Shown: positions 1,137-21,588 of the stretch, in pieces
How the letters are laid out: every line of letters starts with the position of its first letter
How positions within the stretch are numbered: position 1 is the first letter of the stretch
Virus record (IMG/VR): IMGVR_UViG_2579778956_000001
Span: 1-24,208 of that record
Length of the DNA: 24,208 nucleotides
Direction: 5' to 3' (one strand)
Origin: a virus
Lineage: Duplodnaviria; Heunggongvirae; Uroviricota; Caudoviricetes
Program-made: the position numbers and the translations under genes
Notes under the pieces: generated by a model
Told to the model about the DNA's origin: nothing
Database searches by the model: none
Seen by the model: the letters and a program-made list of their open reading frames with translations, nothing else

Positions 1137-2813
1137 CTAAGCAACATGTAGTTCATCGTTGGCGGAAGTGGCTGCTTTGCGTTCCTGCTCAATAGCTAGT
1201 GACTCTCTATATTCTTTCGCCTCTGCAAACATTGTCCAGTGGGCATTGATGTTCATATCTTCAATAACCGATTTAATTTCTTTAATATTTACGTTAAAAA
1301 ACTCTTTTCGTGAGTTAATTTTATTGACCTGCTTTTCGTTGAAGACTTTATGCAGATGATTTTCTAATGACGGTGCATCATCACTATAAATCATCGCATG
1401 AACATCGAACGAAAAAGGAACACTAGCATCCCCAAGTTCACGAACACGATCAAGTGGTTCAAGGCGGCGTGTCATTCCAATTTTATATACATCTTCGCCA
1501 AATGAGCCAATATTGCTAATTATATAAACATGGCCTGATCTAGTTTGTTGAGCCATAGAAATAGCTCGTTGGTTTTTAGCTTCAGCTTCTTCATATTTTA
1601 ACTGTAGTTCAGCTATTTTTTGCTCTAAAGCTAAGCGTTGTTCTTCATTTGCAAGCATAAGCTCTTTCGTTGCTTTATTTATAGCTTGCTGAATAGCTTT
1701 TTCTTCTTTTTCGGCTTCTTTTATCGCTTTTTCATACTCTCTACGAGCTCTTTCCTCTTCACGAAGCTGTTCTTTAATCCTTCTTTGCTCCTCTTTTTCT
1801 TCGAGCATAATTTCATTAACTGCAACTCCCCATTTTAGCTCGTTGAGTCGTGCCTGAAGATAGATGTCACTTATTTTTGCGGATCTAAAAGCAGAGCCAT
1901 TATAATTTACAAGTTGAAATGCATCTTTTATTTCTTGGGAAAGTTTTCCAAAATTGTTGTGTTTGACTTTTGATAAAATACTGTCAACTCTTCCATTGAA
2001 GGCATCCAAAACAAAGTTGATAGCAGTATTACGCCTGTTTTGCTCAACATAATCACACGAAGCTGCTTTATTAGTTTTTATTAATGATTTTGTTAACTCC
2101 CTGGCTTTTTGTAATTCCTTGCCTGCATCTGTAAACTCATAATTTTCTGCCAATTCATCAAGTACACTACGGTTAGGGATGATCCATTCATCGCCATAAC
2201 CTTCAATTTTATTTTTCATTGATTTGGCAACTGCTTCATATTTTTCTGCAAACTCTTTAGCTTCATATGCTGAACCAGCAATCTCTTTTGCTCTTTCTTC
2301 TGCATCGGAAATAATTTTTACTGCGTTGTCATTAGCATTTGAGATCAGCTCATTTGCTTTACTGTTGGCATTATCAAGACGTTCTTTGGCTTTCAGGCGT
2401 GCATCGCGAGCGTCTTTGGTGATTGCTATAGCTTCGCTATTAGCGTTGCTTATTGTTATCTGAGCTTGATAACTTGCTTCGTTTACTGTCTTAGCTGCCT
2501 TTATTTGGGCTTCTTCTATTTTTTGCCTAGCTATTGAGTCTGCATTTTTTATCTTATTCTCTGCCTCCATCACTGCGCTGTGCAATTCTTCGTATTGCCA
2601 TAATGGTGCTGCTCGCCCTTCAAGCTCTGATAGATCTCGTGCAGTCTGTGCTAACTTTTCTTGATTTTCACTCAGTTGGCTGGAAAGGGCTATGTTGTTA
2701 GCCGTCAGATTATCTATGGCGGCTTTGTGTTCTTTACTTTGCTTAAATAATATTATAGCTAGAACAGGGGCGAGAAATGCTAATAAGAATATAACGATGG
2801 AAAATGAATTCAT
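1137..2813 (-). CDS. Membrane-anchored coiled-coil protein with DUF4041 and C-terminal T5orf172 (GIY-YIG-like, MUG113) domains; candidate defence/abortive-infection moron
   Basis: 558-aa ORF. N-terminal hydrophobic helix (FSIVIFLLAFLAPVLAIILF), long E/K/A-rich coiled-coil region, and C-terminal GHVYIISN...YKIGMTRRLEPLDRVRELG...PFSFDV...LHKVF...REFF, which matches the T5orf172 pattern from memory. AT-rich relative to the phage backbone. Starts 20 nt after the cI stop with AAGGA as SD. Confidence 0.8.
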   Translation of the reverse strand: MNSFSIVIFLLAFLAPVLAIILFKQSKEHKAAIDNLTANNIALSSQLSENQEKLAQTARDLSELEGRAAPLWQYEELHSAVMEAENKIKNADSIARQKIEEAQIKAAKTVNEASYQAQITISNANSEAIAITKDARDARLKAKERLDNANSKANELISNANDNAVKIISDAEERAKEIAGSAYEAKEFAEKYEAVAKSMKNKIEGYGDEWIIPNRSVLDELAENYEFTDAGKELQKARELTKSLIKTNKAASCDYVEQNRRNTAINFVLDAFNGRVDSILSKVKHNNFGKLSQEIKDAFQLVNYNGSAFRSAKISDIYLQARLNELKWGVAVNEIMLEEKEEQRRIKEQLREEERARREYEKAIKEAEKEEKAIQQAINKATKELMLANEEQRLALEQKIAELQLKYEEAEAKNQRAISMAQQTRSGHVYIISNIGSFGEDVYKIGMTRRLEPLDRVRELGDASVPFSFDVHAMIYSDDAPSLENHLHKVFNEKQVNKINSRKEFFNVNIKEIKSVIEDMNINAHWTMFAEAKEYRESLAIEQERKAATSANDELHVA

Positions 2814-2833: not shown

Positions 2834-3430
2834 TCAATTTGAAACTATTGTACTTCTTATACAAGCAACCACTTCAATATCAGAAAATGCACATTCAAAG
2901 CTATTCTCTGTAGTTGTAATTTTAATCATACCTTTTGGAAGCTTTGTGATTTTTCGAATGGAATAGGTTCCGTCGATGTTGATTAACCAGTGTCCATCAA
3001 GTACTTCAGAAAATTTTTGATCACAAATGTATGTGACAAGCCCATCCTGAATAACAATTGGTGATGAAAGATTTGCAGGAAGAAATGATGAATCGAATAC
3101 ATATGAACCATCTTCAATCATTTTGCCTGCGGTAAGGCGAAACTTGGGAAGCTCTTCTGTGGCTACTGTCAGCGAGCTTTGCTTAAGTCCTTGCCCGGTG
3201 GTTAACCATTTCAGTGAGGTTCCTGTTTCAAGAGCACATTGGATTATCCAGTCTGCAGGAAACGTATCCCGCAAATACCTGTTCGCCAGAGTGCTTTTTG
3301 ATACTTCCAAGTGATCAGCTAAAGCCTGTCGTGTCGTAAAGCCATAAGCTTCGACTAATCGCTCAATCGCAGCCTTACCACCTTTATTGGGATTTATTTT
3401 GATCTCACTTGGGTACTTTGATGTTGACAT
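2834..3430 (-). CDS. cI: 186-type CI immunity repressor (N-terminal HTH, C-terminal oligomerisation domain)
   Basis: 198-aa ORF. N-terminal LVEAYGFTTRQALADHLEVSKSTLANRYLRD...ALETGTSLKWLTTGQG resembles the phage-186 CI HTH domain. Divergent from the apl/cII genes and adjacent to int. No LexA/S24-type Ala-Gly cleavage site or G-D-S-M motif seen. Confidence 0.75.
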   Translation of the reverse strand: MSTSKYPSEIKINPNKGGKAAIERLVEAYGFTTRQALADHLEVSKSTLANRYLRDTFPADWIIQCALETGTSLKWLTTGQGLKQSSLTVATEELPKFRLTAGKMIEDGSYVFDSSFLPANLSSPIVIQDGLVTYICDQKFSEVLDGHWLINIDGTYSIRKITKLPKGMIKITTTENSFECAFSDIEVVACIRSTIVSN

Positions 3431-3525
3431 ATCTCTTTTGCGATCCTAGTATCAGTTTTGTCCCCATTTGGGTACTTGTCACGATTACTACAGGCTCACC
3501 ACAAGCCAATAGGAGATGTTGCATC
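3431..3525. promoter_or_regulatory. Lysis-lysogeny switch region between divergently oriented cI and apl (expected face-to-face pL/pR promoters and CI/Apl operators)
   Basis: 95-bp intergenic region between the cI start (3430, minus) and the apl start (3526, plus). Contains TTGTCA/TTGTCC-like hexamers and a good SD (AGGAG 3511-3515) for apl. Exact -35/-10 elements and operators not resolved by eye. Confidence 0.4.
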
Positions 3526-3747
3526 ATGACCCCTAACATTTCAATAACTCTGAATACGCCACATGTCACAATTGAGCGTTATAGCGAACTTACTGGTCTT
3601 TCAATCGACACAATTAACGATATGCTGGCTGACGGTCGCATCCCTCGGCATCGCCTTCGGAAAGACAAGAAAAGAGAAAAGGTGATGATCAACCTTGCTG
3701 CTCTTACCGTTGATGCACTTACTGATTGCAATGTTGTATTCAACTAG
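3526..3747 (+). CDS. Apl/Cox-like small HTH DNA-binding protein (excisionase / lytic-switch regulator)
   Basis: 73-aa ORF starting at ATG 3526 behind SD AGGAG; the ORF-track upstream extension from 3409 overlaps cI and is unlikely. HTH-like [24 protein letters not shown]. First gene of the rightward early operon, in the Apl/Cox position. Confidence 0.6.
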
Positions 3748-3779
3748 TTCCATTTTGGGATACATCAGGGGTGTCGACC

Positions 3780-4289
3780 ATGTTTGATTACCAAGTTTCC
3801 AAACATCCACATTTTGATGAAGCCTGTCGTGCATTCGCATTGCGCCACAACCTGGTGCAACTGGCAGAACGTGCTGGCATGAATGTGCAGATTCTGCGGA
3901 ACAAGCTGAACCCATCTCAACCTCATTTATTAACCGCACCAGAAATCTGGCTGCTTACCGATCTGACTGAAGATTCAACGCTGGTAGATGGTTTTCTGGC
4001 ACAGATTCACTGCCTGCCATGTGTACCGATTAATGAGGTTGCAAAAGAGAAACTGCCGCATTACGTCATGAGCGCAACTGCAGAGATCGGACGTGTTGCA
4101 GCAGGTGCGGTATCTGGTGATGTAAAAACTAGTGCCGGTCGTCGTGATGCTATCAGCAGCATTAACTCTGTAACACGACTGATGGCGCTGGCTGCTGTTT
4201 CATTGCAGGCCCGTTTACAGGCTAATCCTGCGATGGCGAGTGCAGTTGATACCGTGACTGGCCTCGGTGCTTCATTCGGTTTGCTGTGA
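3780..4289 (+). CDS. cII: Phage regulatory protein CII (186/P2-family)
   Basis: Start chosen at ATG 3780 ([45 protein letters not shown]...) after the apl stop, with a GGGG SD upstream. Sequence recalled as 186 CII-like; position after apl. Confidence 0.7.
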
Positions 4290-4296
4290 GGTGCTT

Positions 4297-4497
4297 ATGC
4301 TGACGAAAGAACCATCATTTGCATCGCTGCTGGTAAAACAAAGCCCGGCAATGCACTACGGTCACGGCTGGATCATGGGTGAGGATGGTAAACGCTGGCA
4401 TCCGTGCCGTTCACAAGATGAATTGCTGGCAGAACTATCTACGAAAAAACGGGGGAACAAATGGCTATTGAAGGCGCTGCGGCGACTGTTCCATTAA
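4297..4497 (+). CDS. Early-region hypothetical protein
   Basis: 66-aa ORF from ATG 4297 with SD GAGG 5-6 nt upstream, directly after cII. No recognisable domain. Confidence 0.45.
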   Translation: MLTKEPSFASLLVKQSPAMHYGHGWIMGEDGKRWHPCRSQDELLAELSTKKRGNKWLLKALRRLFH

Positions 4498-4802
4498 GCC
4501 CCGGTGAACGCCTGAATGGACTTAATCACATAGCGGAATTAAGGGCGAAAGTTTTTGGCCTGAATATTGAGTCAGAGCTTGAGCGGTTTATTAAAGATAT
4601 GCGTGATCCACGGGATATCAATAACGAACAAAATAAACGAGCACTGGCAGCCATATTCTTTATGGCAAAAATTCCGGCTGAACGTCATAGCATCAGCATT
4701 AATGAGCTGACCACTGACGAAAAGCGGGAGTTGATTAAAGCAATGAATCATTTTCGTGCAGTGGTGAGCTTATTTCCCAGACGGCTAACCATGCCGAATT
4801 AA
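4461..4802 (+). CDS. Early-region hypothetical protein
   Basis: 113-aa ORF with SD GGGGGA upstream of ATG 4461. Overlaps the previous ORF in a different frame, as is common in phage early operons. Confidence 0.5.
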   Translation: MAIEGAAATVPLSPGERLNGLNHIAELRAKVFGLNIESELERFIKDMRDPRDINNEQNKRALAAIFFMAKIPAERHSISINELTTDEKRELIKAMNHFRAVVSLFPRRLTMPN

Positions 4803-4869
4803 CCAACCAATGAAATTAATGGCGTAAACCCGCCGGGCATCCCTTTATCTAAATTCAGGAGAATTGATT

Positions 4870-5103
4870 ATGCGTAATATTGAAACCCTCTCGACCAAAA
4901 CCGGACCGGATGACGCAGGGCTTAATATTTTACTGACAGAGGCTCGTCTGGAAGAACGCCGGGCAAGGGCTGAAGCAATGGCAGCTCGCCTTGATAGCCT
5001 GGCGTGTCATATCACATCCCGCCAGCTAACCCACGTCGAAGCGGCAGAACTGCTTCGTGTGACTGCTGAAGCAATCCAGAACGAAGCGCAGGAGATCCAC
5101 TAA
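4870..5103 (+). CDS. Early-region hypothetical protein
   Basis: ATG at 4870 preceded by AGGAG (4856-4860); the ORF-track start at 4864 is a TTG. Stop overlaps the next gene's start. Confidence 0.5.
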   Translation: MRNIETLSTKTGPDDAGLNILLTEARLEERRARAEAMAARLDSLACHITSRQLTHVEAAELLRVTAEAIQNEAQEIH

Positions 5104-5330
5104 TGGCTGATGCAATGGATCTCGTACAGCAGCGCGTTGAAGAAGAACGCCAACGCCATATCCGTGCTGCCCGTGCCAAAACGCCGGGCGTGTCCCGCGT
5201 GCTTTGCATTGAGTGTGAAGCGCCAATTCCGCCAGCACGCCGCCGTGCCATTCCGGGTGTGCAGCTTTGCATTACCTGTCAGGAAATCGCAGAGCTGAAA
5301 GGCAAACATTACAACGGAGGTGCTGTATGA
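5103..5330 (+). CDS. TraR/DksA-family C4 zinc-finger protein
   Basis: 75-aa ORF with CxxC...17 residues...CxxC (CIECEAPIPPARRRAIPGVQLCITCQ). Start overlaps the upstream stop (TAATG). This family commonly sits upstream of replication genes in P2-like phages. Confidence 0.7.
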   Translation: MADAMDLVQQRVEEERQRHIRAARAKTPGVSRVLCIECEAPIPPARRRAIPGVQLCITCQEIAELKGKHYNGGAV

Positions 5331-6184
5331 GCACCATCCTGAAATGGGCGGGAAATAAAACTGCCATAATGTCCGAACTGAAAAAACATCTTCCTGCTGG
5401 CCCGCGACTGGTTGAACCTTTCGCGGGTTCCTGTGCTGTGATGATGGAGACGGATTATCCCAGCTATCTGGTTGCGGATATTAATCCTGATTTAATCAAC
5501 CTCTATAAAAAGGTTGCCGCTGATTGTGAATCGTTTATATCTCGCGCCAGAGTTTTATTTGAGATCGCAAACAGGGAGGTGGCTTATTACAACATAAGGC
5601 AGGAGTTTAATTACTCAACTGAAATTACTGATTTCATGAAAGCGGTATATTTCCTGTATCTCAATCGTCACGGTTACCGTGGTTTATGTCGCTATAACAA
5701 GAGCGGGCATTTCAACATTCCCTACGGTAATTATAAAAATCCGTATTTTCCTGAAAAAGAAATTCGTGCATTTGCAGTAAAAGCCCAGCGGGCAACGTTT
5801 ATCTGCGCCAGCTTTGATGAAACGCTGGCGATGTTGAAGGCGGGGGATGTGGTGTATTGCGATCCGCCGTATGACGGTACGTTTTCCGGCTATCACACTG
5901 ACGGCTTCACTGAAGATGACCAGTATCACCTGGCATGTGTTCTTGAACATCGGTCATCAGAAGGACATCCGGTCATTGTTTCTAACAGTGACACATCCCT
6001 GATCCGTTCGCTGTATCGCAATTTTACTCACCACTACATCAAGGCAAAACGCAGCATCGGTGTGGCAGCTGGCGAGGGTAAATCAGCAACAGAAATCATT
6101 GCTGTTTCCGGGCCGCGCTGCTGGGTGGGATTTGATTATTCGCGTGGCGTGGATAGTTCTGCCGTGTACGGAGTACGTGCATGA
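5327..6184 (+). CDS. dam: Dam-family N6-adenine DNA methyltransferase (orphan, phage-encoded)
   Basis: Start at ATG 5327 (SD GGAGG 5315-5319; ATGA overlap with the TraR stop). ILKWAGNK near the N-terminus, [23 protein letters not shown] and the catalytic DPPY motif closely parallel E. coli Dam. No restriction gene adjacent. Confidence 0.9.
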
Positions 6185-8595
6185 GTCATGCCGATATGAA
6201 CAACTGCTGCGGCTTTAACGAAGCTGCCGCATCGTTCTCATGGAACAGCCCGAAAAAGGCCATTAACCCTTATCTGGACCCGGCGGAAGTTGCGCCGGTT
6301 TCTACGCTTTCAAACCTGATCACTCTGTACGCTGCCGATAACGAGCAGGAACAGCTGCGCCGCGAGGCACTGAGTGATCAGGTCTGGGAGCGTTATTTCT
6401 TTAATGAATCCCGTGATCCTGTCCAGCGCGAAATGGAGCAGGATAAGCTCATTAGCCGGGCAAAGCTGGCGCATGAGCAGCAGCGTTTTAATCCAGACAT
6501 GGTCATTCTGGCTGACGTCAACGCCCAGCCTTCCCATATCAGCAAGCCGCTGATGCAACGTATTGAATATTTCAGCAGCCTGGGCAGGCCAAAGGCTTAT
6601 TCCCGCTATTTGCGTGAGACGATTAAGCCATGTCTGGAACGACTGGAGCATGTCCGCGACTGTCAGCTATCCACTTCTTTTCGCTTTATGGCAAGCCATG
6701 AAGGGCTGGATGGCCTGCTTATCCTGCCTGAAATGAGTCAGGATCAGGTGAAGCGCCTGTCTACCCTTGTCGCTGCGCATATGAGCATGTGCCTTGATGC
6801 AGCTTGTGGCGATTTGTATGCCACCGATGATGTTAAGCCAGAAGAAATCCGCAAGACATGGGAAAAGGTGGCAGCAGAAACCCTGCGTCTGGATGTCATC
6901 CCGCCTGCGTTTGAGCAACTCCGTAGGAAAAGAAACCGCCGTAAACCAGTGCCCTATGAACTCATTCCGGGTTCGCTGGCGCGTATGCTGTGCGCCGACT
7001 GGTGGTATCGGAAATTGTGGAAGATGCGTTGCGAATGGCGGGAAGAGCAGTTGCGTGCTGTCTGCCTGGTCAGCAAAAAAGCATCTCCCTATGTCAGCTA
7101 TGAAGCCGTGATGCATAAACGTGAGCAGCGCCGTAAGTCGCTGGAGTTTTTCCGTTCTCATGAACTGGTGAACGAAGACGGCGACACGCTGGATATGGAA
7201 GATGTGGTAAACGCCAGTAGTAGCAACCCGGCGCATCGCCGCAATGAGATGATGGCATGTGTTAAAGGTCTGGAGCTTATCGCGGAAATGCGCGGTGACT
7301 GCGCCGTTTTCTACACCATCACCTGTCCGTCACGTTTCCATTCCACGCTAAATAACGGCAGGCCCAACCCGACCTGGACAAATGCGACGGTAAGACAAAG
7401 CAGTGATTATCTGGTCGGCATGTTTGCTGCATTTCGTAAGGCGATGCACAAAGCCGGATTGCGCTGGTATGGCGTGCGGGTGGCTGAGCCGCATCATGAC
7501 GGTACAGTTCACTGGCACCTGTTGTGTTTTATGCGCAAAAAAGATCGCCGCGCCATTACTGCTTTGTTGCGTAAGTTTGCCATTCGTGAAGACCGCGAGG
7601 AACTGGGTAATAACACAGGACCACGCTTTAAGTCTGAGTTGATTAACCCGCGCAAAGGTACGCCAACAAGCTACATCGCGAAATACATCAGTAAGAACAT
7701 TGACGGGTGTGGTCTGGCTGGCGAGATCAGCAAGGAAACGGGTAAATCCCTGCGTGATAACGCTGAATACGTTAATGCCTGGGCGTCTCTGCATCGTGTT
7801 CAGCAATTCCGCTTCTTTGGCATTCCGGGGCGTCAGGCTTACCGTGAACTGCGATTGCTGGCTGGTCAGGCGGCAAGGCAACAGGGGGACAAAAAAGCAG
7901 GTGCGCCGGTACTGGATAACCCGCGCCTTGATGCCATTCTGGCTGCTGCTGATGCTGGTTGTTTTGCCACCTACATCATGAAGCAGGGTGGCGTACTGGT
8001 TCCCCGCAAATATCACCTCATCAGAACTGCTTATGAAATCAACGAAGAGCCGACCGCCTATGGCGATCACGGCATTCGTATTTATGGCATCTGGTCACCT
8101 ATTGCAGAGGGCAAGATCTGCACTCATGCCGTGAAGTGGAAAATGGTTCGTAAGGCCGTTGACGTTCAGGAGGCGGCAGCCGACCAGGGCGCTTGCGCCC
8201 CTTGGACTCGTGGCAATAACTGTCCCCTTGCTGAAAATTTGTACCAACAAGGGAAAGACAAATCAGCTGATGGAGATACCAGAACGGATATCACCCGCAT
8301 GGATGACAAGGAGTTGCACGATTACCTGCACAGTATGAGCAAAAAAGAGCGCCGGGAACTGGCAGCAAGGTTACGCCTGGTGAAACCGAAACGGCGTAAA
8401 GACTACAAACAACGAATTACAGACCATCAGCGACTGCAGCTCGTGTATGAACTGAAGTCCAGGGGATTTGATGGCAGCGAGAAAGAGGTCGATTTACTGC
8501 TTCGCGGCGGCAGTATTCCGTCAGGAGCAGGCCTGCGTATCTTCTATCGGAACCAGCGTTTGCAGGAAGATGATAAGTGGCGAAACCTGTATTAA
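6181..8595 (+). CDS. A: Replication initiation protein gpA (rolling-circle replication endonuclease, HUH family)
   Basis: 804-aa ORF. HUH-like VHWHLLCF and twin-tyrosine SYIAKYISK motifs. ATGA overlap with the dam stop. Size and position match P2 gene A. Confidence 0.9.
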
Positions 8596-8687
8596 TTACG
8601 CGGGTTAACAATTCGTGCTCTTAATAATACCAGGCATATCAGGGTGATGAGCGTAAAAAAACGTTTTACATCAGTAAGATTATTATA

Positions 8688-8707
8688 TACTGTAAATATA
8701 AACAGTG
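8688..8707. promoter_or_regulatory. LexA (SOS) box overlapping a putative promoter upstream of the small ORF at 8748
   Basis: taCTGTaaatataaACAGtg (CTGT 8690-8693, 8-nt AT-rich spacer, ACAG 8702-8705) matches the consensus CTGT-N8-ACAG. Embedded in an AT-rich region with a TTTACA -35-like hexamer upstream, and about 45 bp before an ORF with a strong SD (AGGAGG 8738-8743). Confidence 0.6.
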
Positions 8708-8747
8708 GTTATGTATACAGTATTGCTTTGGTGTCATAGGAGGAAAG

Positions 8748-8936
8748 ATGCAGGACTATTTTTTGGAGTCTTTGAAGCTCCAGCGCATTGATTTTTTTCT
8801 TAAGCTTGTAGCGGCTAGTGAGTGTAGTGATGAAGAGAAGGGGCTGGCTCTGCAGTGGGTTTCAGAGCTGACTGATGAGTTGATGGCGAAAATTCGTGCC
8901 CATGAATATAACCGTGTAATGGATCTTCCCGGTTAG
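8748..8936 (+). CDS. Small hypothetical protein under putative LexA control (possible antirepressor-like or SOS-induced factor)
   Basis: 62-aa ORF with strong SD AGGAGG and an upstream LexA box. Position corresponds to the 186 tum / P2 tin-old region downstream of gene A. No confident homology recognised. Confidence 0.5.
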   Translation: MQDYFLESLKLQRIDFFLKLVAASECSDEEKGLALQWVSELTDELMAKIRAHEYNRVMDLPG

Positions 8937-8949
8937 CAGCAGGGGCGTT

Positions 8950-8980
8950 GCTGGCGTGAGAACTAGATTCTCGCGTCAGC
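8950..8980 (+). other. Long imperfect palindrome / RNA hairpin downstream of the small ORF
   Basis: GCTGGCGTGAGAA (8950-8962), 5-nt loop, TTCTCGCGTCAGC (8968-8980): a 13-bp stem with two G-U wobbles in RNA. No U-tract follows, so not a canonical terminator. Confidence 0.35.
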
Positions 8981-9106
8981 AAGGTCAACTAAGGATTGAA
9001 ACAGAAAGCCCTTGAAAACAGTAGCAAGTTGCCTATTATCTACGCTGTATTTAATCGATGTCATTGGCTGTAATACCTTAAGTGATATTGAAAGGCGGTG
9101 TGGGGA

Positions 9107-10267
9107 ATGGATCTGGCTAAAGTTGAAGAACGCGTCCGAAGAGTCATAGGGACAATGGAGTCTGCCGAGCTTGATGAATATTTTTGGGGTAAGCGCTCGG
9201 GTTTGGGAGACTCATTACCTCCGTATTATCTCGTTTATTTTCTTTTGGTAGATTTACTGAAATTTAAAAATCGTGGGGTTGATGAGAAGATTTCTTTTTC
9301 TATCCCAGTCCGGATTGATGGGACTGTCGTAATTATAGAACATCGTAAACTTGGTTTAGATATATTTATCAAGAGTGATGATGATATAGAGCAAGCTAAA
9401 ACTGTTTTGAGACATATTTGCGCAGGGGTTAAAGCTGCTACGAAATTTTTTGACTCGCTTGCAGACAATGCAGCAAAGACTTCAAATCTAAATGTTAATA
9501 ACAATGCTAATTCTCTTTATGATAGGTTTTGCTATTTTTTAGAGCTATATAAACAGAAGCTTGATGAAGTTGCTGCTGGCCAAGAGTCTAAACTGGAAGT
9601 TGATAGTGAGTTTAAGTCTGATAATTTTTTCAGCCTGTTACAATCCACTTTTGAACAATCAAATAAGATAATTGAACTCCGAAGAGAGGCTATGTGGTTA
9701 GCAACGTCTGCAATTGAGTCATTTTTCAATTGGACCGAGCATGTTTTCATTCTTATTGCAATCTTGAAGGGTGAGATAAAAAATGGGAATGATGTGGCTG
9801 ATAAAGTTGGGAAAGAATGGGGGGAGAAATTCAAATTAGCCATTGATATTAACTCTTCCAGTCTAAAATCATTCTATGATCGTTTACTTATACTCAGAAA
9901 ACAGGTGCGTAATTTTGTAGCCCATGGCGCCTTCGGTAAGGATGGGCAAGCATTGGAATTTCACTCAAGTGTAGGGGCTGTGCCACTATTGCTGCCTCAT
10001 CGAGAAAATAAAGAACGTTTCAAGTTTGGAAATGGTGTGCATTTTTTGGCACCTGAAGCAATGCAATTAATTAACGATTTTCTTGAAAATTTGTGGCAGG
10101 GAGAACTGTCCCCAGCAAAAATTTATATTGAATCTGGATGTCCTTTAATACTATCTTACGTAACTAATGGAACCTATGCGGAGGCGATGAAATCAGAAAG
10201 GAATATGGACTTATTGGTTAATTACTTAACTCGTGAGATGGATAATGCCGCAAACATGGATTGGTAA
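9107..10267 (+). CDS. Hypothetical protein with HEPN-like R-N-x3-H motif (candidate RNase-type defence/abortive-infection effector)
   Basis: ORF with ATG at 9107 (alternative GTG at 9098; SD-like AAGG at 9092-9095, about 11 nt upstream). AT-rich codon usage. Contains LRKQVRNFVAHG, which fits the HEPN consensus R-[NSH]-x3-H. No other domain recognised. Lies in the gpA-Q hotspot. Confidence 0.65.
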   Translation: MDLAKVEERVRRVIGTMESAELDEYFWGKRSGLGDSLPPYYLVYFLLVDLLKFKNRGVDEKISFSIPVRIDGTVVIIEHRKLGLDIFIKSDDDIEQAKTVLRHICAGVKAATKFFDSLADNAAKTSNLNVNNNANSLYDRFCYFLELYKQKLDEVAAGQESKLEVDSEFKSDNFFSLLQSTFEQSNKIIELRREAMWLATSAIESFFNWTEHVFILIAILKGEIKNGNDVADKVGKEWGEKFKLAIDINSSSLKSFYDRLLILRKQVRNFVAHGAFGKDGQALEFHSSVGAVPLLLPHRENKERFKFGNGVHFLAPEAMQLINDFLENLWQGELSPAKIYIESGCPLILSYVTNGTYAEAMKSERNMDLLVNYLTREMDNAANMDW

Positions 10268-10594: not shown

Positions 10595-11845
10595 ATGGAT
10601 AAACAACGTGCTTCACAAGTTTTTGTGCCTGGCGGTATGCCGAAATTGACTTATGTTGAGCGCTCTGAAGGAGAGGTTCATGGAAAACTGGAGAGTGCTA
10701 AAGATAATTTATGTAAGTTAGTGACTTTAACTGGGCAAACAAAGTCTGGTAAGACTGTAATTACAAGAATGGTATTCCCAGTCATGGACGATGATGTTGT
10801 ATGGATTGACGGTGGGAGTATTACAACTGAAGATGATATTTGGGAGCAGGTATTAGAAAAACTAAATGGCTACCATAGTATTGAAGTTAATTCTGGAGAA
10901 AATAGTGCTATTGCAGTTAGTGGTAAGGTATCGGGGACCGCAAGTGCATTCGTTGTTAAAGGTACAGGTGAGGCTGGTTTAGTTCAGACGGATGGAAAGT
11001 CAAATGGTAATAAAAAATCGCGAACGATATCCGCAAAAAGTTCTGCACTAAAAGTTCTCTCTCAAACCAAGTCTAGTCTTATAATTGATGACTTTCATTA
11101 CCTTGATCGTGACCTACAAGGTAACTTTATTAGAGCGATAAAACCATTAGTTTTTGATGGAGTACCAGTTGTACTGATAGCCATTCCACATCGAAGATAT
11201 GATGCTGTAAAAGTTGAAAAAGAAATTACCGGACGGCTAGAAAATATTTCCATGCCTTCGTGGGAAATGGATGAACTAAAACAAATAGCAAAAGTGGGAT
11301 TTCCTCTGTTAAACATGGAAGTTAGTGATTCAGTAATTGATAAAATTGCCAATGAATCATTGGGAAGCCCTCATTTAATGCAAGAGTTTTGCAAGGCTAT
11401 ATGCTTAGCAAATAATGTTAAAGAAACTTTGCCGAGTAAGTTAGTTATTAATTCTTTAGATGATGATATTTTTAGAAAGGTTGCAGAATCCACTGGGAAA
11501 ATAGTATTTGATAAGTTAGCTAGTGGCCCTAATCAGCGAACTGACAGAATTCCTAGAAAACTGAAAAGTGGTGAGGAAGTAGATATATATAAAGTTGTAT
11601 TATATGCATTGTCACATATGAAACCAGGAATGCAAAGTATTCAGTATGAGGAGTTAAGATCAGCCATACGCGAACTGGTGCAAGATGCTCCTCCACAAGC
11701 TCATGAGGTTACTCGTGTTATAGAAAAAATGGCTAAAATAGCTGCTACGGAAGAAGCTTCAACTCCTGTAATAGATTGGGATAAGGAGGACCGAAAGTTG
11801 CATATTACTGATCCATTTTTTGCTTTTTATCTAAAATGGCGATAA
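10595..11845 (+). CDS. P-loop NTPase (Walker A/B ATPase), candidate defence-system ATPase
   Basis: 416-aa ORF with SD GGGAAG upstream. Walker A LTGQTKSGKT (about residue 45) and Walker B-like hhhhDD (SLIIDDFHYLD). AT-rich. No nuclease (Toprim/HNH) motif recognised, so not an obvious Old/Gabija-type protein. Confidence 0.8.
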   Translation: MDKQRASQVFVPGGMPKLTYVERSEGEVHGKLESAKDNLCKLVTLTGQTKSGKTVITRMVFPVMDDDVVWIDGGSITTEDDIWEQVLEKLNGYHSIEVNSGENSAIAVSGKVSGTASAFVVKGTGEAGLVQTDGKSNGNKKSRTISAKSSALKVLSQTKSSLIIDDFHYLDRDLQGNFIRAIKPLVFDGVPVVLIAIPHRRYDAVKVEKEITGRLENISMPSWEMDELKQIAKVGFPLLNMEVSDSVIDKIANESLGSPHLMQEFCKAICLANNVKETLPSKLVINSLDDDIFRKVAESTGKIVFDKLASGPNQRTDRIPRKLKSGEEVDIYKVVLYALSHMKPGMQSIQYEELRSAIRELVQDAPPQAHEVTRVIEKMAKIAATEEASTPVIDWDKEDRKLHITDPFFAFYLKWR

Positions 11846-14820: not shown

Positions 14821-15459
14821 ATGACAGTGAAAGCAAAGCGTTTTCGCATCGGGGTGGAAGGTGCCACCACCGACGGACGCGAAATCCAGCGTGAATGGCT
14901 GGAACAGATGGCAGCCAGCTACAACCCGGCGGTGTATACCGCGCTGATTAACCTTGAGCACATCAAGTCTTATCTGCCGGACAGCACCTTTAACCGCTAC
15001 GGCAAGGTGACGGCGCTGTTTGCTGAAGAAATCAAGGAAGGTCCGCTGGCAGGCAAGATGGCGCTGTATGCCGACGTTGAGCCAACGGAGTCCCTGGTGG
15101 AACTGGTGAAAAAAGGCCAGAAATTATTCACATCTATGGAAGTTAGCCCGAAGTTCGCTGATACGGGCAAAGCCTACCTGGTCGGCCTGGCTGCCACTGA
15201 TGACCCTGCCAGTCTGGGCACTGAAATGCTGACATTCAGCGCCAGTGCAGCCCATAACCCGCTGGCAAACCGCAAGCAGAATCCCGCCAATCTTTTTACC
15301 GCTGCAGAGGAAACGGTGATCGAACTGGAAGAAATCCAGGATGACAAACCGTCCCTGTTTGCCCGTGTCACGGCGCTGTTCACCAAAAAAGAGCAGTCCG
15401 ATGACGCCCGGTTCTCTGATGTGCATAAGGCCGTGGAACAACTGGCAGGGGATCGTTGA
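14821..15459 (+). CDS. O: Capsid scaffolding protein gpO, C-terminally truncated at a deletion junction (likely nonfunctional)
   Basis: 212-aa ORF with an N-terminus of gpO type (FRIGVEGATTDGREI...YLVGLAATDDPASLGTE). P2 gpO is about 284 aa as I recall. The ORF ends in a short non-homologous tail (QLAGDR*) exactly where tail-tube homology begins in another frame. Confidence 0.75.
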   Translation: MTVKAKRFRIGVEGATTDGREIQREWLEQMAASYNPAVYTALINLEHIKSYLPDSTFNRYGKVTALFAEEIKEGPLAGKMALYADVEPTESLVELVKKGQKLFTSMEVSPKFADTGKAYLVGLAATDDPASLGTEMLTFSASAAHNPLANRKQNPANLFTAAEETVIELEEIQDDKPSLFARVTALFTKKEQSDDARFSDVHKAVEQLAGDR

Positions 15460-15904
15460 GTCGCTGACGCTGCCGAAATTTACCCGCAAATATGAGAAGT
15501 ATCGCGGCGGCGGAATGCCGGGTGCGGTGGATGTGGATCTGGGGCTTGATGACAGTGCGCTGGACACAGAATTTTCCATTGGTGGTACTGAATTGCTGCT
15601 GTTTAAACAGATGGGTAAAGCCACGGTGGATGGCATCCAGCTGCGCTTTACCGGCTCTATTCAGCGTGACGATACCGGGGAAGTGCAGGCCGTGGAGCTT
15701 GTCGTGCGTGGACGTCACAAAGAAGTGGATTCCGGCGAGTGGAAGACGGGCGAAAGCAACACCACCAAAGTGACCAGTACCAACAGCTACGCGAAGCTGA
15801 CCATCAATGGTGAGGTGCTCTATGAAGTGGACCTTATCAACATGGTGGAAATTGTGGACGGTGTGGACCTGATGGAAGCGCACCGCAACGCCCTCGGCCT
15901 CTGA
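15446..15904 (+). pseudogene. FII: Tail tube protein FII, 5'-truncated fragment fused downstream of gpO
   Basis: Frame of ORF 15341..15904. Homology to the P2 major tail tube protein begins about at QGIVESLTLPKFTRKYEKYRGGGMPGAVDVDLGLDD and runs to the C-terminus (...EAHRNALGL). About 25 N-terminal residues and any start codon/SD are missing; the upstream part of the ORF overlaps gpO out of frame. Confidence 0.7.
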
Positions 15905-15958
15905 TATATCTGAACGGCGCGGGATACCGCGCCAGAACCCAATTGACAGGACAGCAAA

Positions 15959-16261
15959 ATGAGCGATAAGCAGACTGAAAAGACCATTCAACTGGATACC
16001 CCCATCAAGCGCGGTAAAACAGAAATCACCGAAATTGTGCTGCGTAAACCGCAGTCCGGTGCGCTGCGCGGTACACGCCTGCAGGCCATTATGGATATGG
16101 ATGTGAACGCGATGATGACCGTGATCCCCCGCATCTCCAGTCCGGCACTGACTGCACAGGAAATTGCAGAGATGGACCCGGCAGATCTCACTGCCATGTC
16201 GGTTGAGGTTGTCACTTTTTTGTTGAAGAAGTCGGTGCTTGCCGGTTTACCGACAGCCTGA
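15959..16261 (+). CDS. E: Tail assembly chaperone gpE
   Basis: 100-aa ORF directly upstream of the tape-measure gene, containing a slippery heptamer near its 3' end, as in P2 E/E' (analogous to lambda G/GT). Confidence 0.8.
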   Translation: MSDKQTEKTIQLDTPIKRGKTEITEIVLRKPQSGALRGTRLQAIMDMDVNAMMTVIPRISSPALTAQEIAEMDPADLTAMSVEVVTFLLKKSVLAGLPTA

Positions 16262-16395
16262 CGGTTGACGATCTGGTGGCAGATATCGCCACCATTTTTC
16301 ACTGGCCGCCATCCGTTACTGACGTTATGCCGCTGACCGAAGTGCTGGAATGGCGGTATAAAGCGATTCAGAGAAGCGGGGCCAACGATGAGTGA
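15959..16395 (+). CDS. E': gpE+E' extended chaperone produced by programmed -1 ribosomal frameshift
   Basis: After a -1 slip at T TTT TTG (16216-16222) the reading frame stays open to TGA at 16393-16395, overlapping the T start codon (16388). Translated by hand: ...FVEEVGACRFTDSLTVDDLVADIATIFHWPPSVTDVMPLTEVLEWRYKAIQRSGANDE*. Confidence 0.7.
16216..16222 (+). other. Programmed -1 frameshift slippery heptamer (X XXY YYZ = T TTT TTG)
   Basis: TTTTTTG, in frame as ac[T TTT TTG] in gene E. Conserved arrangement upstream of tape-measure genes. Confidence 0.7.
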
Positions 16396-21134: not shown

Positions 21135-21353
21135 ATGATGATTTGCCCACTGTGTGGAAGTGCCGCCCATACTCGCAGCAGTTTTCAGGTATCTTCATTG
21201 ACCAAAGAGCGTTACAACCAGTGCCAGAATATTAACTGCAGCCATACTTTTGTAACCCATGAAACTTTTGTTCGTTCGATTGCAACGCCAAAAGAGTCAA
21301 ATCCGGTTCAGCCGCATCCAATGAAATCAGGACAGGTGGCGCTCTCTCTTTGA
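21135..21353 (+). CDS. ogr: Ogr/Delta-family zinc-finger late-gene transcription activator
   Basis: 72-aa product from ATG 21135 (SD GGAGA 21121-21125): MMICPLCGSAAHTRSS...KERYNQCQNINCSHTF..., which has the Ogr C-x2-C...C-x4-C pattern and the same length as P2 Ogr. Last gene before the host junction. Confidence 0.8.
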   Translation: MMICPLCGSAAHTRSSFQVSSLTKERYNQCQNINCSHTFVTHETFVRSIATPKESNPVQPHPMKSGQVALSL

Positions 21354-21433
21354 CGCTGCCGCCATTTTGTCGCCATCGTTAAAAAACAGTGCTTCTAACG
21401 TCATGATTTTAAACGGCATAAATTTCAGGCAAC

Positions 21434-21476
21434 AAAAAACCCATCAACCTTGAACCGAAATGGCGGGGTTGATGGG
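21434..21476 (-). terminator. Putative intrinsic terminator downstream of ybjL (minus-strand sense)
   Basis: Inverted repeat CCCATCAACC (21440-21449) / GGTTGATGGG (21467-21476), preceded on the plus strand by AAAAAA (21434-21439), a U-run on the minus strand. The loop is long (17 nt), so confidence is modest. Confidence 0.4.
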
Positions 21477-21588
21477 CTCCACAAAATGGGGACATCAAAG
21501 AAAAGCAGTGGCACTAATTAAGACTGATGCCCTGCGGAAAAGTTCTGCGGTTGTGCAAAAAAATTTCATTTTCAGGGCAACTTCAGTT

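Follow-up and report, generated by a model that had tools for sequence, protein, structure and literature searches.

An orphan Dam-family adenine methyltransferase gene overlapping replication gene A in a defective 186-like prophage of Escherichia coli

We examined a stretch of 24,208 nucleotides (nt) of viral DNA (Caudoviricetes), positions 1 to 24,208 of the IMG/VR record IMGVR_UViG_2579778956_000001, hereafter called the window. It contains an E. coli prophage related to phage 186 (Peduoviridae), and the gene of interest is a DNA adenine methyltransferase (Dam) gene situated immediately before the replication gene A. Four plus-strand open reading frames (ORFs) fill positions 4870-8595 with no spacer between them. 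The first (4870-5103) encodes a DUF2732 protein of 77 amino acids (aa) (PF10809, 1e-28; PHROG 128), whose homologues are orf80 of P2 and a non-essential ORF of 186. The second (5103-5330) encodes a TraR/DksA-family C4 zinc-finger protein of 75 aa, with the cysteine motifs C35-x2-C38 and C56-x2-C59. This protein scored 65.8 bits against TIGR02419 (TraR family, cut-off 59.7) and 43.5 bits against PF01258 (3.1e-11, cut-off 24.9), matched F-plasmid TraR in the RNA polymerase complexes 5W1S and 6N57 (E = 2.6e-9), and shares 68% identity with the zinc-finger ORF of 186. Its score stayed under the cut-off of the F-plasmid TraR equivalog (40.4 vs. 108 bits). The third ORF (5327-6184) encodes the Dam protein, of 285 aa, and the fourth (6181-8595) the replication initiator gpA, of 804 aa (PF05840, 2e-127), which is 36% identical to A of 186 and 32% identical to A of P2. 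An earlier note, made from the DNA letters of the window, had described a Dam-like gene set between a TraR-like zinc finger and gpA, and the TIGR02419, PF01258 and PF05840 matches agree with both neighbours. That description was accurate, although the range given for it, 5103-6184, spans the zinc-finger gene together with the Dam gene, the latter alone occupying 5327-6184.

The stop-start overlaps that the note had seen on both sides of Dam are read directly from the sequence. Between the DUF2732 and zinc-finger genes the junction is TAATG (5101-5105), where the stop TAA (5101-5103) and the start ATG (5103-5105) share one nucleotide. The zinc-finger and Dam genes overlap by 4 nt in ATGA (5327-5330; ATG 5327-5329, TGA 5328-5330), and Dam and gpA likewise meet at an ATGA (6181-6184; ATG 6181-6183, TGA 6182-6184). 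A Shine-Dalgarno-like sequence stands 6-8 nt before each of the three starts (AGGAG at 5090-5094, GGAGG at 5316-5320, GGAG at 6170-6173). At the zinc-finger/Dam junction, the Shine-Dalgarno, the spacer and the overlapping ATG/TGA form the 15-nt plus-strand element GGAGGTGCTGTATGA (5316-5330), and at the other end of the gene the sequence coding for the 22-residue C-terminal tail of Dam also holds the Shine-Dalgarno and the start of gpA. We counted the conservation of these junctions in the 69 IMG/VR relatives that align to 4864-6300 without gaps. The series TAATG/ATGA/ATGA was exact in 61 relatives, TGATG/ATGA/ATGA was found in 7, and a TTG start still overlapping the stop in 1, so that with these minor variants the overlaps are kept in 69 of 69. 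Given this conservation, the overlapping gene arrangement exceeds chance.

The Dam-like assignment was confirmed by full-length matches to two family profiles. The protein matched PF02086 at 1.9e-75 over profile positions 1-253 of 253 (254.3 bits, cut-off 22), and TIGR00571, the NCBIfam Dam family, with 317.6 bits (cut-off 114.85). Its score of 284.3 bits against the chromosomal Dam equivalog NF008152 lies below the cut-off of 441, which makes it a Dam-family paralogue and not the housekeeping Dam. The E. coli Dam structures 2G1P and 4GOL were matched at E = 5e-72, collinear across residues 4-263, and 46.9% of the 258 aligned residues are identical; the order of the motifs is alpha, collinear with that of E. 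coli Dam. The sequence D179-P-P-Y182 (nt 5861-5872) aligns with D181-Y184 of E. coli Dam, and the residues kept from the E. coli enzyme are K9, Y119, L122, R124, P134, Y138 and D181-P-P-Y184. In E. coli Dam, GATC is recognized through R124, which contacts Gua4, Y119, which intercalates, L122 and P134, which contact the third base pair, K9 and Y138, which touch the first base pair, and N120, which gives a base hydrogen bond (PMC4417163). Six of these seven contact residues (K9, Y119, L122, R124, P134, Y138) are identical in the window protein, the seventh, N120, being R118. On these grounds of homology, 5327-6184 most probably encodes an alpha-class (D12, Dam-family) N6-adenine methyltransferase with GATC as its target. 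Also, the Asp-Pro codons of DPPY (GAT CCG) form a GATC site at 5861-5864, which places a presumed target of the enzyme inside its own active-site codons; this is probably trivial.

The gene is maintained by purifying selection among its relatives. At least 599 stretches of the collection encode a relative, of which 80 IMG/VR loci were retrieved, and the Dam ORF is intact, at 285 aa, in all 80. Dam occurs in these loci as 57 alleles at the nucleotide level and 39 at the protein level, and 89 of the 144 variable sites fall at third codon positions. Against the window copy, the dN/dS of the relatives is 0.10-0.14, and the catalytic and recognition residues are invariant in 58 distinct alleles. 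Together, the low dN/dS and the invariant residues point to selection that acts on the enzyme and does more than keep a reading frame open.

No nuclease partner of the methyltransferase was recognized, in line with the orphan status proposed in the earlier note. The best PADLOC model for the protein is the orphan methyltransferase model oMTase (365 bits), the gene is flanked by the zinc finger and gpA, and scans with Pfam, PADLOC and PHROGs found no restriction-nuclease domain in any large ORF of the window. These scans turned up a PD-Lambda-1 defence protein and a PDC-S59-like ATPase, and no restriction enzyme. The one caveat concerns the only unassigned ORF nearby (9098-10267, 389 aa), which has no recognizable domain. 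It accompanies Dam in only 1 of the 80 related loci, where cII, DUF5347, Dam and gpA co-occur in 74-80, and was rejected as a partner since it is not co-inherited with Dam.

Transcription of the block probably starts far upstream. A pR-like early lytic promoter, TTGACA-17-TAGTAT (3424-3452, plus strand; 10 of 12 matches in a consensus scan), is the presumed source of the Dam transcript. It lies just past the point where divergent cI starts (2834-3430, minus strand), which matches the placement of pR in phage 186. The consensus scan gave no other plus-strand promoter-like site from 3452 to 9012, and an internal promoter serving expression in the prophage state was accordingly rejected as a candidate. 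As the pR-like site is the only one upstream on this strand, Dam would be made only after derepression of pR, together with gpA. Just before the DUF2732 gene, positions 4821-4849 (plus strand) are homologous to the tR1 terminator region of 186 (GGCGTAAACCCGCCGGGCAT...), with a 20-nt core equal to 186 tR1 (positions 2885-2913 of the 186 sequence, L085). The fold of 4795-4870 is not significant alone (z = -0.04 against shuffled sequence), and a terminator is suggested here by positional analogy only. The curated 186 record places tR1 upstream of the DUF2732 gene, among several terminators subject to anti-termination early in lytic growth. Also, a hairpin inside gpA, some 100 nt from the gene start (CCGGCG-N7-CGCCGG, then TTTCT; 6276-6302, plus strand; -13.8 kcal/mol), may be the counterpart of 186 tM1, again by positional analogy only, its z of -1.5 against shuffled sequence not being significant alone. 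The 186 record puts tM1 at 86-113 nt inside A, as the terminator expected to stop lytic transcripts if A goes untranslated.

The 186 record gives a precedent for the coupling that the note had proposed along the zinc finger, Dam and gpA. In that phage the gene preceding A overlaps A by the same ATGA, and translation of A apparently requires translation to the end of orf84. The N-termini of the A proteins diverge, so that aligning the Dam/A junction with those of 186 and P2 is uninformative. From the overlaps and Shine-Dalgarno sequences present in the window, and from the orf84-A record, we infer that translation of gpA depends on that of Dam.

The preferred interpretation, which we regard as probable, is that the gene is an accessory orphan Dam of a 186-like E. 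coli prophage that would methylate GATC, be driven from pR and coupled to gpA, and top up the methylation of phage DNA. The Dam gene occupies the variable slot between the conserved TraR-family zinc-finger gene and A, within what is presumably a CI-repressed early lytic operon. Upon derepression, transcription from pR would pass the tR1-like site; ribosomes ending the zinc-finger ORF would re-initiate on Dam at the overlapping ATGA, and those ending Dam would re-initiate on gpA. Such re-initiation along the junctions would make Dam alongside the replicase, with translation of Dam aiding that of A, as recorded for orf84 and A of 186. The additional Dam activity would supplement a host enzyme that may be limiting for rapidly amplified DNA, and progeny genomes, with about 3.5 GATC per kb, could be fully methylated on leaving the cell. 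This would guard them against methylation-sensitive GATC restriction (DpnII/MboI type) in the next host, and would avoid the host processes that depend on hemimethylation, SeqA binding and MutH nicking. Host Dam has been described as limiting for high-copy DNA, and phage Dam as an anti-restriction function that comes at the cost of triggering retron-Sen2 (bioRxiv 10.1101/2020.06.22.160242). It is this background that makes topping up the GATC methylation of progeny DNA the most probable role; protection of phage DNA or support of its replication during lytic growth, as the note had suggested, is plausible. The window contains 87 GATC sites for 94-109 expected (~3.5 per kb). This near-expected density suggests that phage DNA is an ordinary Dam substrate, and avoidance or enrichment of GATC as a sign of function gave no signal.

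Several observations weigh against this interpretation. The GATC specificity of this allele is deduced from homology, and the base-contacting N120 of E. coli Dam is replaced by R118 and R137 by N135. Motif I reads F32-A-G34-S-C36 where FxGxG is the usual form, its last Gly having become Cys. Two private non-synonymous changes, E151V and S204C (positions 5778 and 5937), are present in the window Dam and in none of the 80 relatives, and the gene lies in a prophage without head and tail genes, where it may be under relaxed selection. The strong Shine-Dalgarno before each start would allow independent initiation. A homologue of the P2/186 origin nick region, identified by aligning the window locally with the ori sites annotated in 186 and P2, lies inside gpA (8186-8223, plus strand), and no GATC cluster was found at this predicted ori, the nearest GATC sites (8065 and 8115) being 70-120 nt away; a regulatory role there is therefore unsupported. 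Also, the ORFs that occupy the same slot in 186 are annotated as non-essential, any gain from the phage enzyme is hypothetical in an E. coli host with a Dam of its own, and what phage Dam enzymes do has been described as not yet well understood (PMC7556043).

The slot itself varies in content among related phages. The Dam gene has a G+C content of 46.6%, falling to 42-45% in its central part (5400-6000), against 56.6% for the zinc-finger gene and 52.6% for gpA, and this lower value fits horizontally acquired cargo. Yersinia phage vB_YenM_42.18 (OM046624.1; L003, 2965-3804) encodes in this neighbourhood an intact 279-aa Dam with 53% identity to that of the window, unannotated publicly, the slot of Klebsiella phage Kp4851-1 is taken by a Dam of 41% identity, and in Salmonella phage SW3 gpA is preceded by a Dam gene (39% identity) along with a small ORF and a C5-cytosine methyltransferase gene. 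In 6 of the 80 relatives, an extra 100-aa ASCH/DUF3850-like gene is found between the zinc finger and Dam, with GGAGGTGCTGTATGA on both of its sides (for example at 3688-3705 and 3987-4004 of locus L037). Phage 186 has GGAGGTGCTTTATGA after its zinc-finger gene (L085, ~3377-3394), though a different gene comes next. The duplicated junction around the ASCH-like gene and the nearly identical junction in 186 suggest cassette-like exchange at a conserved coupling junction. We tentatively raise the possibility, which we hold to be less likely than not, that the site just upstream of A in Peduoviridae is a docking slot set aside for translationally coupled cargo, where enzymes of DNA modification or nucleic-acid metabolism are acquired time after time and exchanged as cassettes at GGAGGTGCTGTATGA. 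The cargo known to us comprises at least four mutually divergent Dam lineages, the C5-cytosine methyltransferase of SW3, orf84 and an exonuclease-like ORF of 186, and the ASCH-like genes; the sample was picked through a Dam search and is uninformative on frequencies. If such a docking slot exists, its cargo would be made in step with the cis-acting replicase and would act on nascent phage DNA.

Some details of these divergent loci were recorded as well. The record of vB_YenM_42.18 lists small ORFs in place of Dam, and the start of its gpA is probably set too far upstream. The Dams of Kp4851-1 (L004, 2989-3933) and SW3 (L002, 2998-3981) bear a C-terminal CxxC...CxxC extension, a possible zinc ribbon, which the window Dam does not have. 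The annotated end of the C5-cytosine methyltransferase of SW3 (L002, 4205-5128) overlaps the gpA start by 8 nt.

Among the other explanations, the one that survives best holds that the gene is mainly a translational bridge: selection would keep an ORF ending on the ATGA of A, which would feed ribosomes to A and prevent premature termination within it, and the methylase would be incidental cargo. The situation in 186 argues for it, as the ORF before A there is the PAPS-reductase-like orf84, non-essential, and yet translation to its end is apparently needed for A; in P2 the slot is occupied by a DUF5405 protein, and among relatives the content of the slot changes when its junctions persist. Nevertheless, a dN/dS of about 0.1 over the whole Dam ORF, with the residue invariance described above, points to selection on the enzyme itself, and the presence of divergent Dam lineages (53%, 41% and 39% identity) in the same neighbourhood of other Peduoviridae genera suggests that a methylase was retained repeatedly. 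We find it unlikely that bridging is the main function, and the bridge and the enzyme are in any case compatible.

Slightly less credible is the proposal that this Dam copy is decaying, a remnant without activity in a prophage that is itself defective. The prophage has lost about 12 kb of morphogenesis genes, the exact window protein occurs on one contig only in the collection, and the two private changes in Dam are both non-synonymous, with zero private synonymous changes beside them. One of them, E151V, hits a Glu common to E. coli Dam and all 80 relatives. Against decay, the ORF is intact with all motifs present, two substitutions are too few to infer it, and the adjoining gpA is also intact, its own private changes being mostly synonymous. 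E151V and S204C in a defective prophage justify mild caution about the activity of this allele, and we consider an inactive remnant improbable.

The earlier note had also suggested that the gene could affect host Dam-regulated genes from the prophage, that is, lysogenic conversion in which a constitutively expressed Dam alters host GATC methylation. This appears very unlikely. The gene lies in a pR operon, past a CI-controlled promoter and the tR1 homologue, with no promoter-like site before Dam or, on the plus strand, anywhere from pR to 9012. Also, the E. coli host has its own Dam, and the GATC sites of a Dam-positive host are expected to be nearly all methylated already, which weighs against a further effect. 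In favour of such conversion, the defective prophage has been retained in the chromosome, and two reports describe prophage methyltransferases that can alter host expression in other systems (PMC4659465, PMC12435837). In the lysogenic E. coli ST131 strain EC958, however, another prophage Dam homologue, not shown to belong to the same family, was without transcript by reverse transcription PCR and predicted to be inactive (PMC4659465).

Just as remote is the idea that N120R, R137N or the 22-residue C-terminal extension gives the enzyme an altered or relaxed specificity, with a target other or broader than GATC that would shield the phage from other restriction systems: the residue at the position of N120 is Arg in every member of the window clade, and phage adenine methyltransferases of relaxed specificity exist (PMC7556043, PMC3299994), but R124, L122, P134, Y119, K9 and Y138 are all kept, and a near-identical protein, that of Ec67, was published as providing 'Dam methylase functions'.

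A prophage Dam before gpA is already known, annotated as DNA adenine methylase, and ordinary. The 1.6-kb segment shows 97-98% DNA identity to many Peduoviridae of Klebsiella, Escherichia and Salmonella, whose records already annotate DUF2732, a DksA-like zinc finger, a Dam DNA adenine methylase and gpA. Of 5426 complete E. coli genomes, 1241 (~23%) contain the stretch from the zinc finger to Dam, and PGAP annotates it there in the same way. The exact window protein is WP_025649907.1. Among the 4038 members of its 90% cluster is a protein that bears the name 'retron EC67 DNA adenine methylase' and shares 98% identity with that of the window. Prophage copies of Dam being common, they should be borne in mind in the study of methylomes after induction, of phage sensitivity to GATC-directed restriction, and of Dam-sensing defences such as retron-Sen2.

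The closest described system is the prophage of retron Ec67. The window prophage has no retron, carries other cargo in its hotspot, and shows two private Dam substitutions, whereas the Dam of retron Ec67 has the same length (285 aa), falls in the same 90% cluster and comes from a 186-related E. coli prophage. Identity to the protein described in 1990 is indirect, through the NCBI protein named after Ec67. The study of that year is said to have given about 44% identity to E. coli Dam. The prophage that houses retron Ec67 is 34 kb long and related to 186, and its Dam ORF was reported in 1990 (Hsu, Inouye and Inouye, 1990, PNAS 87:9454; Hsu et al., 1990 and Dodd and Egan, 1996, cited in PMC7826664 and PMC6868368).

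Compared with the chromosomal Dam of E. coli, also an orphan, the window protein is collinear and 46.9% identical, with the same DPPY and K9/Y119/L122/R124/P134/Y138, and differs by N120R, R137N, the FAGSC motif, the 22-residue tail, and its location on a phage in a repressed operon. With 186 and P2 the window shares the operon order cII, fil, (dhr or DUF5347), tR1, DUF2732, TraR zinc finger, variable ORFs and A. The ATGA overlap onto A is found for both 186 orf84 and P2 orf83, and the zinc finger is followed by a nearly identical junction. The difference lies in the slot, which contains an exonuclease-like ORF, a DUF5405 protein and a PAPS-reductase-like ORF in 186, and a DUF5405 protein in P2, where no methylase is encoded (PMC3091744). 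Other phage orphan Dams (P1, T2/T4, HP1, VT2/933W) belong to the same family, have no cognate nuclease either and are grouped as phage Dam enzymes in PMC7556043. They differ in genomic position and known roles, and their identity to the window Dam is low (by tblastn, 35.5% for P1 and ~22% for T4). Dam of P1, for instance, is tied to packaging at the pac site, and phages of the type found in the window package from cos.

The surroundings of the block correspond to the early lytic operon of 186-like phages. In synteny with the annotated relatives Escherichia phage Cartapus and 186, we found the order int, cI, divergent pR/apl, cII, fil, DUF2732, zinc finger and A. The left side of the window holds the integrase, a PD-Lambda-1 defence gene and cI, followed by the pR-like promoter, cII, fil, DUF5347 and the Dam block. 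The prophage is defective. It measures ~21.5 kb, against ~33-35 kb in intact relatives, and the head/capsid, lysis, baseplate and sheath genes and most tail genes are missing; the scaffold gene gpO, truncated to 207 of 268 profile positions, is fused directly to the tail-tube gene at ~15435 (14821-16388). On the right, the last phage gene is an Ogr-like zinc-finger ORF of 72 aa (21135-21353, plus strand). The host small RNA gene RybB (21431-21509, minus strand; Rfam, 105 bits), which was the only known RNA element found in the Rfam scan of the region, adjoins the right end of the prophage, and the flank ybjL-ybjM-grxA matches E. coli chromosomes at 100% identity.

Finally, the prophage carries candidate defence cargo at two places. 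The PD-Lambda-1 gene (1137-2813, minus strand; PADLOC, 7e-120) lies between the integrase and cI, encodes a protein of 558 aa with T5orf172/MUG113 and DUF4041 domains, and is common to only 3 of the 80 related loci. Between gpA and the portal gene there is a hotspot of 39% G+C, from which the DinI/tum-like gene of relatives is apparently absent, with two cargo ORFs on the plus strand (9098-10267 and 10595-11845). The 389-aa protein of the first gave no Pfam, PADLOC or PHROG match, and that of the second, an AAA-type protein of 416 aa, matches the candidate defence family PDC-S59 (1.2e-31).

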